Below, in pieces: positions 1-7,340 of a stretch of 32,000 nucleotides of DNA. Below the pieces are notes generated by a model. That model saw only the letters and a program-made list of their open reading frames with translations, did not search any database and was not told the DNA's origin. The position numbers and the translations under genes are program-made. Origin of the DNA: an uncultured Clostridia bacterium (lineage in GTDB: Bacteria; Bacillota; Clostridia; Oscillospirales; Feifaniaceae); contig CAJFTX010000067.1 of NCBI GenBank assembly GCA_904420075.1, forward strand, positions 12,781 through 44,780. The letters are read 5' to 3'. Position 1 is the first letter of the stretch; every line of letters starts with the position of its first letter.

Positions 1-388
1 GTATTCTGGTAACCAGCCCTCGTACAATCAGTCAAGTGAAGTGAAATTCTCAAGTTCCGTAGCCGCAGGAACTGATGTCTACGCCGATATTGTTTCCATC
101 TTCCCAGCTATCGGAATTTACACGCAAAGATCTTCTAACTATACTCATTTTGTATGTGAGTGCAAAACACCGACAGATTCTACCGTGTGGGTATATATGT
201 CTACCTCAGAATATAGAAACAACTTTGATTCAAATGTTTCTACAAGCATTCATAACGAGTACCAAGATGAGAAAACATTTTCGTCAAAGAGAATCCATGG
301 TGAGGCAAGAAAGGCTGATAATGTAATGTCCAGTCTTTCTTCAGATACCGGTGCGACCATGTTGATAGACTTTGACTCCGTTGGCTAA
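1..388 (+). CDS. hypothetical protein, 3' end (reading frame open to the left window edge)
   Basis: Frame 2 is open from base 2 to TAA at 386-388. The track ORF 41..388 is only the part after an internal GTG. The region is AT-rich, unlike the rest of the window, and I recognise no motif. Confidence 0.35.
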   Translation, partial: YSGNQPSYNQSSEVKFSSSVAAGTDVYADIVSIFPAIGIYTQRSSNYTHFVCECKTPTDSTVWVYMSTSEYRNNFDSNVSTSIHNEYQDEKTFSSKRIHGEARKADNVMSSLSSDTGATMLIDFDSVG

Positions 389-633
389 CTTGGTCTTCTT
401 GAATGGAGCTGTAGATTACATTGAAAAAGAGATTATGAATTTTGGGCTTGTTTCCAAAAAAGGTTCTTGAAAAATATAGAATTAATATTGAGAGTACAAA
501 TCGTGCATTCCAAGAAAATAAAACTTCAAAAGAATCTTGGCGTGGCAGAGAATGTTGCGAATTGGTTGCGGAAAATGATGCCTATCAATTCTACGGATAC
601 AGAACCTACCCTGATCACAGTGGAGGTTATATA

Positions 634-1131
634 TCAAGGCGGAAAACCGGTGGCATATTTTACTTCACCAGCTTCCAGCTTTTTCAGACTATCCTCCAAT
701 ATTCGGATTTTTACGGAAGCTGTCAGCAGTAGTCTTCTCTGGAAATTCCATCCGCTGAAATAGAACAGCTTTTTCGGAACACAGTTTTCCTCTAAATCTT
801 CCATCAGTTCGGCAATCCGTTTAGCAAAGTCACAGTGTTTCAGGACATAAATAACGGGAGTTTCTTTTTCTCTGCCAAAACAGCTTTGCGCTCTTTGGAT
901 TTTGCCTTAATCTTATCAGCGATAACAACATAAGAATCAGCTCCTTTTCGTGTTGATTTCCAGCGGTTATAAGGCTTTTTCTGCTCCTTTCCTAATAACA
1001 TTTTCAATTCACCATAAATGAGAACCGCTGTCATATGTATTAGGTGGCGGGCACCACCCTTTACATAGTAACTCCTGTTTGGGAATAATGGATCGTTCCC
1101 CTCGTCGTCTCATAAGTTTTCCCTGTCTCTC
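634..1131 (-). pseudogene. probable decayed gene remnant(s): three short protein-like segments in three different frames
   Basis: Three minus-strand pieces follow one another out of frame. The first is a 33-codon ORF starting just after the immunity-like gene (MRRRGERSIIPKQELLCKGWCPPPNTYDSGSHLW). The second is the 64-aa ORF 840..1034. The third is an open frame of about 90 codons ending at TGA (plus-strand tca 634-636) that reads ...ETPVIYVLKHCDFAKRIAELMEDLEENCVPKKLFYFSGWNFQRRLLLTASVKIRILEDSLKKLEAGEVKYATGFPP. It looks helical but its only ATG is internal. No family recognised. Confidence 0.3.
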
Positions 1132-1440
1132 TCAGTTGATTTTTTTCCCGCCCACCAGAATCTCCTTTGGAAAGTTGTGATAGTTTACGAGAAAAAAGCC
1201 CTCATCGGATAACTCCACCGGCGGATTTCCGCTCACTTCCTCAGCCTGAAACGCAAACGAGGTGAACTCCTCATATCCCTCCTCGTCCATCTCATAGTCG
1301 TTTTCGTCCTCAAAACAGGTGTCGAACGTCGCAACAATTTTGCTCCCGTCCTCCCATATCAGCTCCATCTGCTCATTCTCATAGTGATCCAGGTTCTCTG
1401 CAAAAGTCTTCACAATTTTTCCTTCATACTTGTTTAACAT
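1132..1440 (-). CDS. small acidic protein, putative cognate immunity protein of the upstream toxin domain
   Basis: ATG at 1440 lies 2 nt after the toxin stop (TAA 1443-1445), preceded by GGATGGAAGGA as RBS. An alternative ATG at 1455 lies inside the toxin gene. The 102-aa product is very acidic (FEDENDYEMDEEGYEEF). Its position and size are typical of immunity genes. No family recognised. Confidence 0.55.
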   Translation of the reverse strand: MLNKYEGKIVKTFAENLDHYENEQMELIWEDGSKIVATFDTCFEDENDYEMDEEGYEEFTSFAFQAEEVSGNPPVELSDEGFFLVNYHNFPKEILVGGKKIN

Positions 1441-1442
1441 CG

Positions 1443-1817
1443 TTAATCCTTCCATCCTTTCGGCCTCGCTGGAACAATGTGCGTTCCCTTTTTTGAATAA
1501 TGGACTGTTCCTCTCGTTGTCTCACCCGTTCTCCCGGTGTTCTGATCTATATATGTCCCTATTACCTCTCCAAAATCTACCCTCTCCTTTTTGGGAGGAA
1601 TCCACTGCCCCGTTCCGGCATATTGATCGACAAGTTCCTGCGCCTTTTTCATCGAGCCGCGAAAAACACTCCTACCCTTCATGTAGTTATTGTGTCCCGG
1701 AATGTGCTTTCCCTGATTTCCCTCGTGTATTCTTTTCGGAAATCCGCGTATTCTTCCGCTTCCCTTCGTGTTGCCGAAGCTGCCACCGCCGCCTCCGCCG
1801 CCGATTCCGCCGCCCAC
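1443..1817 (-). CDS. Gly-rich linker plus polymorphic-toxin type 50 (Ntox50/PF15542-like) C-terminal toxin domain, free-standing 124-aa ORF
   Basis: GTG start 1815-1817 overlaps the TAG stop of the upstream gene by 1 nt (TAGTG). The N-terminus is GGGIGGGGGGGS. The rest carries NQGKHIPGHNNYMKGRSVF, AQELVDQYAGTG, VDFGEVIGTY and TTRGTVHYSKKGTHIVPARP. From memory these match the Ntox50 signature (KH-x-G-x-NY ... IHYSK-G-HIVPA-P). This needs HMM confirmation. Confidence 0.6.
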   Translation of the reverse strand: MGGGIGGGGGGGSFGNTKGSGRIRGFPKRIHEGNQGKHIPGHNNYMKGRSVFRGSMKKAQELVDQYAGTGQWIPPKKERVDFGEVIGTYIDQNTGRTGETTRGTVHYSKKGTHIVPARPKGWKD

Positions 1818-2506
1818 TAAGCAGTCACCTGCTCTCTGACCTTCAGAATCTCGCTTGTGAAGGGGACGATGCGGATTCCCGCCTCCCGGTACGGGGCGAA
1901 GATGTCGTCGGGCGCCATGCCATAGACGAGGATCGTCTTCGGCGAGAGTCGTCTCACAAGCTCGGCAAGCCCCCGCTTGAAGTACTCCCGGTCCTCCCTG
2001 TGCTGGATACAGCCGTGTGTCCCGACCGAGACGGTCTTCCCCGCTTCTATCCCTTCAAAGCAGAAAGCGTAGGTCCGCTCGTCGTTAAACCGGACGTTTG
2101 GGATGATCGGAACACCGTTTTGCTGCAGCCAGACGGCGAGCGTCCGGCCCCGGTATGTATTCCACATCTGCATCACAAGCGGCATGTTCCGGTAGAGGCT
2201 GAAATCGGGGGAGATCACCCCCTGAAACTTCTTCAGCCGGCTTTCATACTGCCTCGGGTTTCTCCACAGCCGCTCAAAGTTCCTGTCCTGCTCGTAGAAC
2301 GCCACCCACGCGTCAAACCTGCGGCAGGAGGCCGACACCGCCTTTGAAAAGGGGATCATCTCCTCCGGCAGAAGCTCGCTTGTCCGAAGCTTCGGGCGCT
2401 CCAACTCTCCCGCGTAGTCGGCCTGCTCCACAAGGTAGGCGTGAAAGACGTCGTATCTCGTATTCAGTTGTCCTTTTGTCACTCGAACGAGTACCTCCGT
2501 AAACAA
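1817..2506 (-). CDS. DUF4417 (PF14386-like) domain protein
   Basis: The sequence ...FYEQDRNFERLWRNPRQYESRLKKFQGVISPDFSLYRNMPLVMQMWNTYRGRTLAVWLQQNGVPIIPNVRFNDERTYAFCFEGIEAGKTVSVGTHG matches the DUF4417 pattern as I recall it. The track start is TTG 2506 with no RBS. GTG at 2482 has GGAGG 11 nt upstream and may be the true start. Confidence 0.75.
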   Translation of the reverse strand: MFTEVLVRVTKGQLNTRYDVFHAYLVEQADYAGELERPKLRTSELLPEEMIPFSKAVSASCRRFDAWVAFYEQDRNFERLWRNPRQYESRLKKFQGVISPDFSLYRNMPLVMQMWNTYRGRTLAVWLQQNGVPIIPNVRFNDERTYAFCFEGIEAGKTVSVGTHGCIQHREDREYFKRGLAELVRRLSPKTILVYGMAPDDIFAPYREAGIRIVPFTSEILKVREQVTA

Positions 2507-2587
2507 AAATTTGAGGAATTCTTCTCTTGCCTTCCGTTTACGGACCTATCGCGGTCGAGTGATATGGAGTCCTAATCCTTAGAGAAA

Positions 2588-2639
2588 GCGCCCCTCGGAA
2601 GACTGTAACAGTTCTTGCAAGGGGCGTTTTTCTTTTTTA
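2588..2639. terminator. long GC hairpin flanked by A/T-rich tracts (candidate bidirectional terminator, right boundary of the accessory cassette)
   Basis: gcgcccct (2588-2595) pairs with aggggcg (2620-2626), with additional inner pairing. On the plus strand it is followed by tttttcttttt. On the minus strand (downstream of the histidine kinase stop at 2719) it is followed by TTTCTCT. Confidence 0.5.
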
Positions 2640-2718
2640 CACGGGCGCTCCTCCCCAAAGGGGTTGCTCCGTTCTTCTCTGATTTCAGTGTAACTCCATT
2701 TTGGAGTGCCGTCAAGAC

Positions 2719-4645: not shown

Positions 4646-4674
4646 GGCGCCCCGGACGGGATGTCCGGGGCGCC
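4646..4674 (-). terminator. hairpin terminator after the P-type ATPase gene
   Basis: Perfect 12-bp stem ggcgccccggac / gtccggggcgcc with a 5-nt loop. It starts 6 nt after the stop at 4680. On the minus strand it is followed by TTAAGGAATTCTT, which is only moderately U-rich. Confidence 0.55.
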
Positions 4675-4679
4675 CTACA

Positions 4680-7340
4680 CTATTTCCGTGCGAGCACCGT
4701 CTTGCGCACGAGGTCCACCGGGATGATGGTGAAGGCGAGCGCGAGCACCACCCCCCACTCCCCGAGCAGCAGTCCGTAGCAGCGGAGAATCTCCCCGCCG
4801 AAGTAGGTCATCAGACACTGCACCAGCACGATCAGCAGCAGAATCTTCCAGAAGCCGTGGTTCTTCTCGATGTTGTCGAAGAGGTTGCGCCGGTCGGTGC
4901 GCGCGTTAAACGCGTTGCACACCGCCATCAGGATATAGAAAGCGAAGTACCCGGTCATGAGATAGGCGTCCCCCGCCGCCGGGCGGAAGAACTTTTCCAC
5001 CGCGGGCGACAGCAGAAAGAAGAGGCTCATCCCAAACGCCCACAGGCCGTCCACCACGATGGCGCTCCACATCTCGCGGCTGACGATGCTCTCCCGGCGC
5101 TGCTTCGGCCGCTCCTGCATGTACCGCCGCAGCGCGGGCTCCCCGCCGAAGGCGAGCGCCGCGAGGGTGTCCATCACGAGGTTCACCCAGAGGATCTGCA
5201 CGATCGAGAGCGGATTTGCCATCCCCAGCAGCGGCGCCATGAAGGAGATGAGCACCGCCGAGACGTTGATGGTGAGCTGAAAGACGATAAATTTGCGGAT
5301 GCTGTTATAGATGGTGCGGCCGTAGAGAATCGCCTTTGCGATCGAGGCGAAGTTGTCGTCGAGGATCACGATGTCCCCCGCCTCCTTCGCGACCTCGGTG
5401 CCGCCGCCCATCGCAAAGCCCACGTCCGCGCACTTGAGGGCGGGCGAGTCGTTGACCCCGTCGCCGGTCATCCCGGCCACCAGGTCGAGCGCCTGCGCCG
5501 CGCGCACAAGCCGGCTCTTGTCGCTCGGCAGCGCCCGCGCCACCACCCGGATCTGCGGCAGCTTGCGCTGGAGCTCCCGGTCATCCATGGCGGCGAGCTC
5601 CTCCGAGGTGAGCGTAAGCTCCCGCTCGGAGCGGAGGATGCCCGCCTCCTTCGCGATGGCGACGGCGGTGTCCTTCCGGTCTCCGGTGATCATCACCACC
5701 TGCACCCCCGCCCGCTGTACCTCGCGGATCGCCTCCTTTGACTCGGGGCGCACCTCGTCCCGGATGCCGATCACGCCGATGAGGGTGAAGGCCCCCTCCG
5801 GCAGGCGCTCGCCCCGGATCTCCCCCTCCGAGGTGCAGAGGGCGAGCACCCGGATGGCCCGCCCCGCGAGCTCGTCGATCCTCCGGTCGAGCTCGCGGCG
5901 GGCCGCGGGGGTGAGCGGGCGGCGCTCCCCGTCCCCGCCGTAGTACCCGTCGCAGCGGGAGAGCAGCTTCTCGGGCGCGCCCTTGATGAGGGTGAGGTTT
6001 CGCTCGCCCCGCACCGTCGCGGCCGAGAACTTCCGGTCGCTCGAGAAGGGGATGGCCGCCACCTTGGTCACGCTCTGCGCCCCGCCCCGCTTCGACTGCG
6101 CCGCAAAGGACAAGATCGCCCGCTCGGTCGCGTTGCCGCCGAGCACCGTGAGCTTCCCCCGGTCGGAGGTGACGAGCGCATCGGTGTTCTGCCGGACGCC
6201 GAGCGAGAGCAGCTGCGCGAGCTCGCCCGGCACCTGGTCGAAGCTCCTGTAGTCGCCGCAGGCCCCGTCCACAAAGCAGACCGCCTGCAGCTCGCCGCGG
6301 GTGATGGTGCCGGTCTTGTCGGAGAAGAGGATGTTGAGGCTGCCCGCCGTCTCGATCCCCGCGATTTTGCGCACCAGCACATTGTCCTTCAGCATCTTTC
6401 GCATGTTGAGCGCGGAGACGAGCGCCACCATCAGCGGCAGCCCCTCCGGCACCGCCATCACGATGACGATCACCGCCAGCATCACCCCCTCGACAAAGTC
6501 GGAGAGCAGCCCGGGCAGGTTCTGACAGTACAGAAGAATCCGCGCGGGGTCAAACCCGTTTGCGATCACGATCCGCTGAAAGAGGAAGGCCGCCGCGATC
6601 AGCACTCCGCCGATGTAGCCGAACTTGCTGATTCCATTCGCGAGCCCCTGGAGCTTCATCGCAAGCGGCGACTCCCGCTCCCCGCTCTGCTGCAGCTCGC
6701 CCGCGATCTGCCCGTAGACCGAGCGGTCGCCCACGGCCGCGACCTCCATCACCCCGCTGCCCGAGACGACCACCGCCCCGCGGAACACCTTGTAGGGCGC
6801 GAGGAAGTCCATCCCCCGCCCCTCGTCGAAGGAGGCGCCGCGCGGGGCGGGGCTCTTCTCCGCCTCGGCGCTCTCGCCGTTCAGGGCCGACTGGTCCGCC
6901 TTGAAGCCGCCCGAGCGCAGAAGGCCGTCCGCCGGAATCCGGTCCCCCGCCTGGAGCAGCACCCGGTCGCCGACCACGATCTCCCCGATCGGCAGCTCGC
7001 AGAGGTTGCCGTTCCGGTAGACCTTGCAGAAGATCTTCCCGGCCTCCTCCTGCAGTTTCTGAAAGGCGTTCTCGTTGCGGTACTCCGAGAAGGTGGACAC
7101 AAAGGTCGCCAGCAGCACCGCCGCCGCGATCCCCACCGACTCGTACCACTCGGTCTGCCCCGTGAGCGCGAAGGTGATATTGATCGCGAGCGCCACGCAG
7201 AGGATTTTAATCATCGGGTCGTTAAAGTTGCCCCGCAGCTTCTGCCAGAAGGTCTCTCCCCCCCGCTCGGTGAGACGGTTGTCCCCGTACCGCTCGCGGG
7301 AGGCGCGCACCTCCGCACTTGACAGTCCTCTCTCTCTCAT
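4680..7340 (-). CDS. calcium-translocating P-type ATPase (PMCA/YloB-like, P2 type)
   Basis: Motifs: DKTGTIT phosphorylation site (FSDKTGTITRG), VPEGLP, MITGDRKDTAVAIAKEAGI, MTGDGVNDSPALKCADVGFAMG. It also has an N-terminal cation-ATPase domain (GLSSAEVRASRERYGDNRL) and multiple TM segments. RBS is GGAGGG. Confidence 0.95.
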   Translation of the reverse strand: MRERGLSSAEVRASRERYGDNRLTERGGETFWQKLRGNFNDPMIKILCVALAINITFALTGQTEWYESVGIAAAVLLATFVSTFSEYRNENAFQKLQEEAGKIFCKVYRNGNLCELPIGEIVVGDRVLLQAGDRIPADGLLRSGGFKADQSALNGESAEAEKSPAPRGASFDEGRGMDFLAPYKVFRGAVVVSGSGVMEVAAVGDRSVYGQIAGELQQSGERESPLAMKLQGLANGISKFGYIGGVLIAAAFLFQRIVIANGFDPARILLYCQNLPGLLSDFVEGVMLAVIVIVMAVPEGLPLMVALVSALNMRKMLKDNVLVRKIAGIETAGSLNILFSDKTGTITRGELQAVCFVDGACGDYRSFDQVPGELAQLLSLGVRQNTDALVTSDRGKLTVLGGNATERAILSFAAQSKRGGAQSVTKVAAIPFSSDRKFSAATVRGERNLTLIKGAPEKLLSRCDGYYGGDGERRPLTPAARRELDRRIDELAGRAIRVLALCTSEGEIRGERLPEGAFTLIGVIGIRDEVRPESKEAIREVQRAGVQVVMITGDRKDTAVAIAKEAGILRSERELTLTSEELAAMDDRELQRKLPQIRVVARALPSDKSRLVRAAQALDLVAGMTGDGVNDSPALKCADVGFAMGGGTEVAKEAGDIVILDDNFASIAKAILYGRTIYNSIRKFIVFQLTINVSAVLISFMAPLLGMANPLSIVQILWVNLVMDTLAALAFGGEPALRRYMQERPKQRRESIVSREMWSAIVVDGLWAFGMSLFFLLSPAVEKFFRPAAGDAYLMTGYFAFYILMAVCNAFNARTDRRNLFDNIEKNHGFWKILLLIVLVQCLMTYFGGEILRCYGLLLGEWGVVLALAFTIIPVDLVRKTVLARK

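Follow-up and report, generated by a model that had tools for sequence, protein, structure and literature searches.

Polymorphic toxins are grouped according to the trafficking domain that they carry. We describe a three-gene locus on the minus strand of a 32,000-nucleotide stretch of DNA from an uncultured Clostridia bacterium (contig CAJFTX010000067.1, positions 12,781 to 44,780; the whole stretch is called the window below), in which a gene of the DUF4417 family is followed by genes for a predicted small, glycine-tagged toxin and its putative immunity protein. The closest described pair is YxiD-CT/YxxD of Bacillus subtilis 6633 (PMC12700104). YxiD-CT, a metal-dependent tRNase with the BECR fold, needs each of the residues H447, H521, H528, K446 and K524 for activity, and YxxD binds it 1:1 with nanomolar affinity and keeps the substrate out by steric hindrance (PMC12700104). 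Full-length YxiD has more than 500 residues with an N-terminal LXG domain, and its type VIIb export is aided by YxiB, YxiC and YxxE (PMC12700104). In the survey of Zhang et al. 2012 (PMC3482391), the corresponding domain, Ntox50, lies at the C terminus of secreted MafB, Rhs, WXG/LXG or MuF proteins; no link to DUF4417 was made and no immunity family was given. MafB2-CT/MafI2 of Neisseria (PDB 8hhj) is a further example, and MuF-fused toxins of temperate phages (PMC5576092; e.g., MuF-Ntox50 of phiC2) combine a constant module with variable toxins.

The middle gene of the window locus (1443..1817, minus strand) encodes 124 amino acids. Its open reading frame (ORF) begins at GTG 1817-1815 with the N-terminal part MGGGIGGGGGGGSFGNTKGS, runs MGGGIGGGGGGGSFGNTKGSGRIRGFPKRIHEGNQGKHIPGHNNY...TTRGTVHYSKKGTHIVPARPKGWKD and stops at TAA 1445-1443, with the motifs KHIPGHNNY, GRSVF, YAGTG and TTRGTVHYSKKGTHIVPARP inside. 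An earlier reading of the DNA made without database searches, here called the original prediction, had taken these motifs for a polymorphic-toxin type 50 module. This was borne out by Ntox50 (PF15542), which matched with 102.6 bits, well over its cut-off of 22.2 (E=2e-29), over the full profile and toxin residues 30-116 (1470..1730, minus strand). A PDB sequence search returned YxiD-CT (9v8i_B, E=1e-25) and MafB2-CT (8hhj_B, E=1e-13); the window toxin shares its Pfam family and the BECR fold with MafB2-CT and other Ntox50 toxins. Its K37, H38, H106, K109/K110 and H113-I-V-P align with K446, H447, H521, K524 and H528-I-V-P of YxiD, so that five out of five functional residues are kept. The exact sequence of the window toxin was absent on database look-up, and near-identical strain copies were used instead. 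We checked the fold on a model of the homologue P0055, a longer form 54% identical to the window toxin, not on the window protein. AlphaFold2 predicted the toxin core of P0055 with a predicted local distance difference test score (pLDDT) of 81-91, and the model matched 9v8i_B (E=8e-9) and 8hhj_B with template modeling (TM) scores of 0.75 and 0.61, respectively.

Apart from its shared homology, the window toxin differs from YxiD in being only 124 residues long, in lacking LXG, in its glycine tag and in its coupling to DUF4417. As had been stated in the original prediction, no LXG, WXG, Rhs, MuF, signal peptide or similar trafficking domain was found in it (Pfam gave Ntox50 only), and no classical one occurred among about 200 homologues. 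These were nearly all free-standing proteins of 100-215 residues with Ntox50 as the sole Pfam domain; among the 120 toxin homologues listed, nearly all had PF15542 alone, while three also had PF06152 and one PF07591. Ntox50 domains of the phage collection were found only within MuF/head-morphogenesis proteins; they were 37-44% identical to the window toxin and untagged. The MuF systems resemble the locus in their constant module, variable toxins and phage biology, but their carrier is a known head protein fused to the toxin, whereas the constant partner in the window is a separate gene and the chromosomal modules lack phage genes.

The third gene (1132..1440, minus strand) opens at ATG 1440, two nucleotides past the toxin stop, and is preceded by the Shine-Dalgarno sequence GAAGGA (1447..1452, minus strand) 6 nucleotides before this ATG. 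An alternative start at ATG 1455 would give 107 residues, but the database copy (NCBI contig) is exactly the 102-residue form. The protein is very acidic, with 25 Asp/Glu against 7 Lys/Arg. It had no Pfam match and its identity came only from the PDB sequence search, in which residues 18-78 of the 107-residue form matched YxxD (9v8i_A, E=1.3e-7). Homologues of this YxxD-like type come after Ntox50 toxins in seven loci (cluster 2). The acidic gene had been called immunity-like, and it is a homologue of a crystallized inhibitor of an Ntox50-type tRNase. An NCBIfam scan of all three window proteins gave nothing useful.

Because both proteins are homologous to an experimentally characterized pair, we assign genes 2 and 3 as tRNase toxin and inhibitor. 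By homology, gene 2 is predicted to encode a small cytotoxic metal-dependent tRNase of the Ntox50/BECR fold and the YxiD-CT family, and gene 3 its putative cognate acidic immunity protein of the YxxD family. The likeness to YxiD-CT/YxxD includes the KH...H..K...HxVP residues and an immunity gene directly downstream, and it extends to the expected mechanism, i.e., tRNA cleavage and steric occlusion by the immunity protein. The latter should bind the toxin 1:1, occlude its RNA-binding cleft and protect the producer. The YxxD link is a useful annotation, since Ntox50 had been left without an immunity family (PMC3482391); one is now assigned to Ntox50 toxins outside Bacillus.

The first gene of the locus encodes DUF4417 (1817..2482, minus strand; 221 residues, GTG start, stop TAG 1819-1817). 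GTG 2482 is most likely its start, and TTG 2506 less likely, because the resulting protein is identical to the database protein P0121 (221 residues) and fits the family N terminus. As read from the sequence, its stop and the toxin start overlap by one nucleotide in TAGTG (1815..1819, minus strand). For the toxin gene there is a separate Shine-Dalgarno sequence, AGGTGA (1825..1830, minus strand), 7 nucleotides before the GTG and inside the DUF4417 codons for ..KQVTA. Minus-strand order, junction, motifs and the acidic ORF had all been given correctly in the original prediction. In comparative sets of partly redundant metagenomic contigs, a one-nucleotide stop/start overlap (TAATG, TAGTG or TGATG) recurred in 25 pairs of DUF4417 and a downstream gene in the Clostridia clade, three further pairs overlapped by four nucleotides, and AGGTGA was conserved across the clade 7 nucleotides ahead of the start codon. 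The same junction was present in the independent assemblies L002, L005, L007, L008 and L010. This supports the view that DUF4417 and toxin would be made as two separate polypeptides by translational coupling, one of the three readings offered originally.

The toxin begins with a conserved tag. Its residues 2-20 (GGGIGGGGGGGSFGNTKGS; 1758..1814, minus strand) conform to a clade consensus over the first ~20 residues, M-G-x-G-x-x-G-x-F-G-N-T-K-G-S, with an expanded poly-Gly spacer. The anchor FGNTKGS after a Gly-rich spacer was found in 109 of 122 distinct N termini, with Thr and the last Gly invariant. Toxins of 122, 124 and 125 residues from different strains (P0492, P0001 and P0497) differ solely by in-frame Gly indels. 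The Gly run had at first been taken for an inter-domain linker; because the anchor is shared and the strain variants differ by Gly indels, it is instead part of the tag. The length changes (1770-1814) suggest repeat slippage in GGC/GGA codons that the tag tolerates.

ORFs downstream of DUF4417 in the clade have 92-221 residues, plus one toxin-immunity readthrough of 365 residues, and all of them start with the tag. Only small proteins (54-168 residues), and never large carriers, contain the conserved N-terminal region. Long forms add a region of ~80 residues, LDALSNLLTAASLIPGLDTFTNLASIPVDLARGDFxSAGLSAxGxIPxVGEVADTAKLA, which the window toxin, a short form, lacks. No Pfam model matched this region; PT-TG was unmatched, and DUF6726, NolX and Diphtheria_T appeared only below threshold. 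DUF4417 lay directly upstream in every retrieved context of tagged members (L001, L002/L005/L007, L004, L137, L138 and L139), with L002, L005 and L007 being of the same species as the window. The order DUF4417, Ntox50, immunity gene was conserved in L001, L002, L004, L007, L137, L138 and L139. DUF4417 is hence a specific, conserved partner of tagged toxins in these loci, in line with the suggestion that it might be a partner domain.

Behind the constant tag the toxin varies. Ntox37 follows it in L011-L018 and L020, and in three chromosomal contexts a DUF4417 protein 69% identical to that of the window precedes Ntox37 and an ORF of 86-90 residues with the same overlap. In seven loci, a toxin with a ParB_N-like domain is followed by a 224-residue metallophosphatase-family protein. 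One tagged toxin type pairs with a DUF2247 immunity protein, and there are several unassigned toxin types besides. The immunity family co-varies strictly with the toxin type (clusters 2, 3, 5 and 17).

Relatives contain orphan or displaced toxin/immunity cassettes (L001, L137, L031, L020 and L043). L001 has three DUF4417 copies (221 residues, 183 residues and a 70-residue C-terminal fragment), each followed by a tagged toxin, and further tagged toxin/immunity pairs. In L137, a DUF4417 fragment precedes a second cassette, and a serine recombinase gene comes after it. L020 retains an intact orphan copy of an immunity gene behind a decayed Ntox50 3' remnant, and in L043 DUF4417 is disrupted and the toxin truncated next to an intact immunity gene. 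Such displaced cassettes and 3' pieces of DUF4417 are typical traces of recombination that exchanges cassettes, with the homology running across the 3' end of DUF4417 and the toxin tag. Judged by sequence comparison, a constant tag, variable toxins, co-varying immunity and orphans make this a polymorphic toxin system in the sense of Zhang et al. 2012. Loci of the contact-dependent inhibition (CDI)/Rhs type similarly have a constant 5' part, a variable 3' toxin and an immunity gene, and as in L001 and L137 displaced cassettes keep a constant piece. In contrast to CDI/Rhs loci, the constant region of DUF4417 loci spans a gene boundary (DUF4417 3' end and tag), and there is no filamentous or Rhs carrier.

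Variation was also seen within the species. The DUF4417 proteins of the window and contig L005 are identical, and over 1.35 kb differences are almost confined to toxin residues 72-80 and immunity residues 65-86. The pattern resembles that of a patch co-varying between toxin and immunity protein, or of a short recombination tract. In the toxin patch, the window reads QWIPPKKERV where L005 reads QQKGPKKEVI.

In L019, L022, L025, L027 and L039, the ParB_N-like toxin (186 residues) always stands before the calcineurin-like metallophosphatase-family protein, which occupies the immunity position. The latter is possibly an unusual candidate immunity protein, or a second enzyme.

The pairing of DUF4417 with a tagged gene extends to phages. 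Phage DUF4417 proteins are distant (27-38% identity) and often fused at the N terminus to a ParB-like domain (phrog_940; ~350-residue forms); in GenBank phages they are annotated as hypothetical proteins. The glycine tag of the ORF behind them reads GGRG(A/S)S. At least one ORF with a G[GS]RG[ASGQ] tag was found on the same strand, no more than 1.6 kb downstream, in 75 of 79 IMG/VR loci, corresponding to 56 of 59 distinct viral DUF4417 sequences. In total there were 129 downstream tags, as against 2 in the corresponding region upstream and none on the other strand. For example, the tagged protein after DUF4417 in Streptococcus phage phiNJ2 starts MGGRGASSG... and lies just upstream of the small terminase. 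In Mycobacterium phage Blue7, gp1 is DUF4417 and gp2 starts MGGRGGSGG..., has an HELGH motif and is annotated as a peptidase. In a Christensenellales phage, the pair has the major tail protein on one side and downstream tail genes on the other.

Some viral tagged effectors have recognizable domains, i.e., a papain-fold glutamine deamidase (Gln_amidase, E=1e-13) and DUF6883 (E=1e-8); others are weak ART-like matches, JAB-like HNHPSGG proteins and zincin-like proteins. Polyvalent proteins (Iyer et al. 2017, PMC5512222) likewise contain zincin-like peptidase, ART-like, JAB-like, RNase-like and deamidase domains, but these are giant, multidomain proteins, whereas the DUF4417-linked effectors have a single domain and a short Gly tag and are encoded in or next to late/structural operons. 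DUF4417 is not mentioned by Iyer et al. 2017 (PMC5512222).

The viral tag occupies one of three positions. It stands directly behind the initiator Met, behind a leader in agreement with the published cleavage motif of Prp, MLxx(D/N)LQ(F/L)F', or behind an N-terminal domain of ~70 residues (L103, L104 and, in the Enterocloster element L136, ...RLD|GGRGASSG). Host Prp, the L27-processing protease, would create a glycine N terminus in the leader-bearing effectors. As the tag is exposed in three different ways, we suggest that the mature N-terminal oligoglycine matters. Moreover, the DUF4417 subtype co-varies with the tag type: the window clade goes with FGNTKGS, a divergent chromosomal subtype (L139, the L137 fragment and L004) with MS(S/G)(G/N)xxSG.T.G and the phage subtype with GGRGAS. 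We found no description in the searchable literature of the DUF4417-tagged-effector pairing, nor of glycine-tagged polymorphic toxins or the MGGRG tag.

Several details of the phage loci may be added. The leftmost mycobacteriophage gene annotated as a nuclease is DUF4417 (Blue7 gp1/gp2, L053 410-1914), and in Blue7 gp2 a long Gly-rich stretch separates MGGRGGSGG... from the HELGH zincin-like domain. In a second phage (L054 2779-3820), MGRGRHSG... comes after DUF4417. Prp-type leaders read MIKLDLQFF|GGRGASS in L095 (~1110) and ...SQLF|GGRGAS in L070/L090 (~4475). The N-terminal domain of ~70-90 residues has the motif ..F(K/R)xxLELxN..F K x (I/M) E (D/E) A/V Y.. and is fused before the GGRG tag of JAB-like (HNHPSGG) effectors in L103, L104 and L136 (3032-3814). 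It can also form a small ORF of its own that stands between DUF4417 and the tagged gene (L101-type loci), and a related peptide is present in the chromosomal array L020 (1626-1754).

DUF4417 itself is a family of about 2,800 clusters at 50% identity, and literature searches on DUF4417/PF14386 gave only incidental mentions that do not address its function. The window protein matched PF14386 with 204.9 bits (cut-off 28.9, E=1e-60) as well as phrog_8680 and phrog_940. Its AlphaFold2 model (pLDDT 81, predicted TM score 0.81) consists of repeating beta-alpha units. The best of its weak Foldseek matches were TIM barrels, including the tRNA-guanine transglycosylase (TGT) 5sw3 (probability 0.94, TM 0.42), and in a viral structure library phage queuine tRNA-ribosyltransferases followed after true DUF4417 homologues (E=7e-3, TM 0.41-0.49). 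DUF4417 is probably a cytoplasmic alpha/beta protein, weakly TIM-barrel/TGT-like. Its likeness to TGT/DpdA enzymes is a weak one of fold, without sequence-level similarity, i.e., 11 diverse DUF4417 members did not match PF01702 (TGT) even at E<=10. PDB sequence profiles gave noise only (weak LINE-1 ORF2 matches, E about 0.02). Across the family, the polar residues D66, S95 and R111 are invariant, E70 and N108 are near-invariant and D93 is kept in most members, which suggests a catalytic or ligand-binding pocket. DpdA, which is TGT-like, pairs with the ParB-like DpdB. The frequent DUF4417-ParB fusion of phages recalls this pair by analogy, which we take as a lead only and not as a family assignment.

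The toxin and immunity domains of the locus belong to known families. What is new to our knowledge, and undescribed within the searchable literature, is the coupling of DUF4417 to glycine-tagged polymorphic effectors, spread over gut Clostridia and many phages. This recurrent pairing points to an undescribed way of toxin handling or delivery. We lean, with modest confidence, towards reading the locus as a three-gene polymorphic toxin cassette of new architecture, in which DUF4417 handles the glycine-tagged effector as a separate trafficking partner. The tRNase toxin would be made together with DUF4417 by coupled translation and be kept inactive by the YxxD-like immunity protein. DUF4417 would then recognize, or act on, the exposed glycine tag, and this recognition might lead to trafficking of the effector, i.e., to its loading, export or packaging, or to licensing of its activity. 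DUF4417 could hereby stand in for the LXG, Rhs or MuF trafficking domains, as a separate polypeptide. For the phage version, packaging and ejection of the effector would be a plausible route, because the pair lies in or beside late/structural operons and the effectors resemble injected polyvalent-protein modules. For the chromosomal version, antagonism between related bacteria is most likely, given the immunity genes, the orphan cassettes and the retained orphan immunity.

A number of observations weigh against DUF4417 as a trafficking partner. Its link to the tag comes from gene context alone. The neighborhoods of the chromosomal modules contain neither a secretion apparatus nor phage structural genes or a receptor-binding domain that could carry a 124-residue toxin out of one cell and into another. 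Some modules lie beside defense genes (PDC-M12A ATPase, Fic, SLFN-like helicase), which would fit intracellular defense as well. The window contains no orphan cassette, its immunity gene being flanked by unrelated sequence. For DUF4417, Foldseek found no PDB match below E=1e-3 and only weak fold matches (TM 0.41-0.49), and the strong conservation of D66, S95 and R111 suggests an enzyme rather than a mere adaptor. Finally, the ~80-residue region of the long forms was predicted with low confidence (AlphaFold2 pLDDT about 40-46); its folding may depend on a partner or a membrane.

A more specific proposal, which we put forward tentatively and rate as rather unlikely, is that DUF4417, as an enzyme or adaptor, uses the exposed N-terminal oligoglycine of unrelated effectors as substrate or handle in a tag-and-traffic delivery shared by phages of Firmicutes and Actinobacteria and by toxin islands of gut Clostridia. 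Effectors might be tethered or ligated to a carrier (DNA, a virion component) or loaded for ejection; phages would inject theirs into the host, the islands would direct their toxins against competitors, and the tRNase of the window might be such cargo.

If DUF4417 handles tagged effectors, a widespread family gains a concrete and testable function. The locus belongs to a large family of minimal toxins without trafficking domain in abundant human-gut and ruminant Clostridia, with a shared glycine tag and DUF4417 as an obligatory neighbor. The pairing reaches hundreds of phages of Firmicutes and Actinobacteria, including Streptococcus phage A25, phiNJ2 and cluster-A-type mycobacteriophages (gp1/gp2), and flags many of their hypothetical proteins as candidate host-directed effectors. 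The minimal tag might also serve engineered cargo delivery.

Toxin-antitoxin systems and abortive infection offer a different reading, which we consider possible though not probable. Here, the toxin would stay in the cell: DUF4417 would sense or antagonize an invader, e.g., phage DNA or a phage DUF4417 system, and release or activate the tRNase via its tag to kill the infected cell, with the immunity protein as antitoxin. tRNases are common effectors of abortive infection. The small size of the toxins and the lack of export genes at the modules agree with such a role, as do the defense-island-like neighborhoods of several genomes (PDC-M12A/AbiLi-like ATPase, Fic, SLFN-like helicase, NUDIX) and the XRE/ImmA-like regulators that adjoin the module in some loci. 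As phages own DUF4417-effector pairs, an arms race is conceivable. However, none of the three window proteins matched a family of PADLOC-DB, and Pfam showed no DNA-binding domain by which the immunity proteins could autoregulate. Sensor-effector defense systems usually come without orphan cassettes, retained immunity genes and recombination scars. In the loci described here, toxin-then-immunity order, YxxD and DUF2247 families, orphan cassettes, decayed toxins and recombination scars fit polymorphic toxins instead.

It is also conceivable, but in our view improbable, that DUF4417 has an unrelated housekeeping or mobile-element function, e.g., in nucleic-acid modification, and that the cassettes, through hitch-hiking or addiction, exploit its conserved 3' end and its translation. 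The tag would then be a signature of recombination or translation initiation instead of a recognition signal. The nucleotide junction is indeed highly conserved in the clade, DUF4417 3' fragments flank displaced cassettes, and phage DUF4417 is often fused to ParB and lies near terminase or methylase genes. On the other hand, the tag is conserved at the protein level with varied Gly codons, from AT-rich Streptococcus to GC-rich Mycobacterium hosts, and is exposed in three ways, i.e., by Met, Prp leader or N-terminal domain. The downstream tags outnumber the upstream ones as given above, and since subtype and tag co-vary and the tag is conserved across GC contents, hitch-hiking is the less likely explanation.

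The last possibility, that DUF4417 and toxin are one protein, split by a sequencing or indel error (a "fusion split by one nucleotide" in the original prediction) or joined by programmed -1 frameshifting, was rejected as extremely improbable: in the GC-rich window the toxin frame runs without a stop for 79 codons ahead of the GTG, and in-frame DUF4417 proteins with a C-terminal GGGSGSS-type extension exist (P0431 and P0462, rare among 2,764 cluster representatives), but in most relatives a stop codon closes the frame 1-13 codons before the start, the junction has no slippery heptamer and the toxin gene its own Shine-Dalgarno sequence, the overlap recurs in the 25 pairs and identically in independent assemblies, and the 120 best DUF4417 homologues all have 215-229 residues, with no DUF4417-toxin fusion among these close relatives.

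Outside the module, the remaining 25 kb of the window hold housekeeping genes, e.g., for acetyl-CoA carboxylase, ketoacyl synthase, DAP epimerase and PurD, and no phage or secretion genes. GC content decreases in steps: the flanking host genes have ~60-72%, DUF4417 ~59%, the toxin gene ~50%, the immunity gene ~46% and the left flank ~40%. The intergenic stretch 5' of DUF4417 (2483..2718, minus strand) contains a promoter-like site (2715-2687), a weak assignment, as its 9 of 12 consensus positions in a consensus scan are no better than chance.

Window and L005 become unrelated right past the immunity stop codon (window 1-1131 and L005 7240-8400). The window flank (~40% GC) has only short unassigned ORFs. 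In L005, the module is followed by a 115-residue ORF and then by genes for D-Ala-D-Ala ligase, VanY and an acyltransferase, with a response-regulator and histidine-kinase pair upstream; the L005 trio therefore lies within a van-like cluster.

No constant upstream partner emerged, and the candidates were rejected: a SpoIVB-like peptidase (9 loci) reflects host synteny, and PDC-M12A (4 loci) and the XRE plus ImmA-like pair (3-4 loci) are not constant. The SpoIVB-like gene lies upstream of the module in nine genomes (L023-L027, L029, L031, L034), which suggests a preferred chromosomal insertion site in a group of Clostridia. In four contexts, an AAA ATPase of 371-388 residues that matches PADLOC PDC-M12A (E=2e-117; also AbiLi and AriA) is encoded directly upstream of DUF4417 (L011-L018 about 4654-5769; L019 318-1484); in L015 and L017 it adjoins Fic, SLFN-like helicase and NUDIX genes. 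An XRE-type helix-turn-helix gene and an ImmA/IrrE-like HExxH protein (173-201 residues) precede the module in L028, L034, L039 and L137. This pair resembles regulators of integrative and conjugative elements and prophages, and toxin expression may be inducible.

An association of DUF4417 with conjugative elements, as originally supposed, turned out to be weak, with plasmid copies being rare and distant (57 records). On the Clostridium perfringens plasmid pCW3 (L135, 2141-4625), a distant DUF4417 of 328 residues has a dcm cytosine methyltransferase on one side and on the other an "amidoligase family protein", a partner that differs from the tagged effectors. Two modules have queuosine/7-deazaguanine genes within a few kb, i.e., GTP cyclohydrolase I and a QueD-like PTPS in L139 (6969-8517) and a TGT in L004 (17836-18208); this proximity, of note in view of the weak TGT-like fold of DUF4417, is probably a coincidence.

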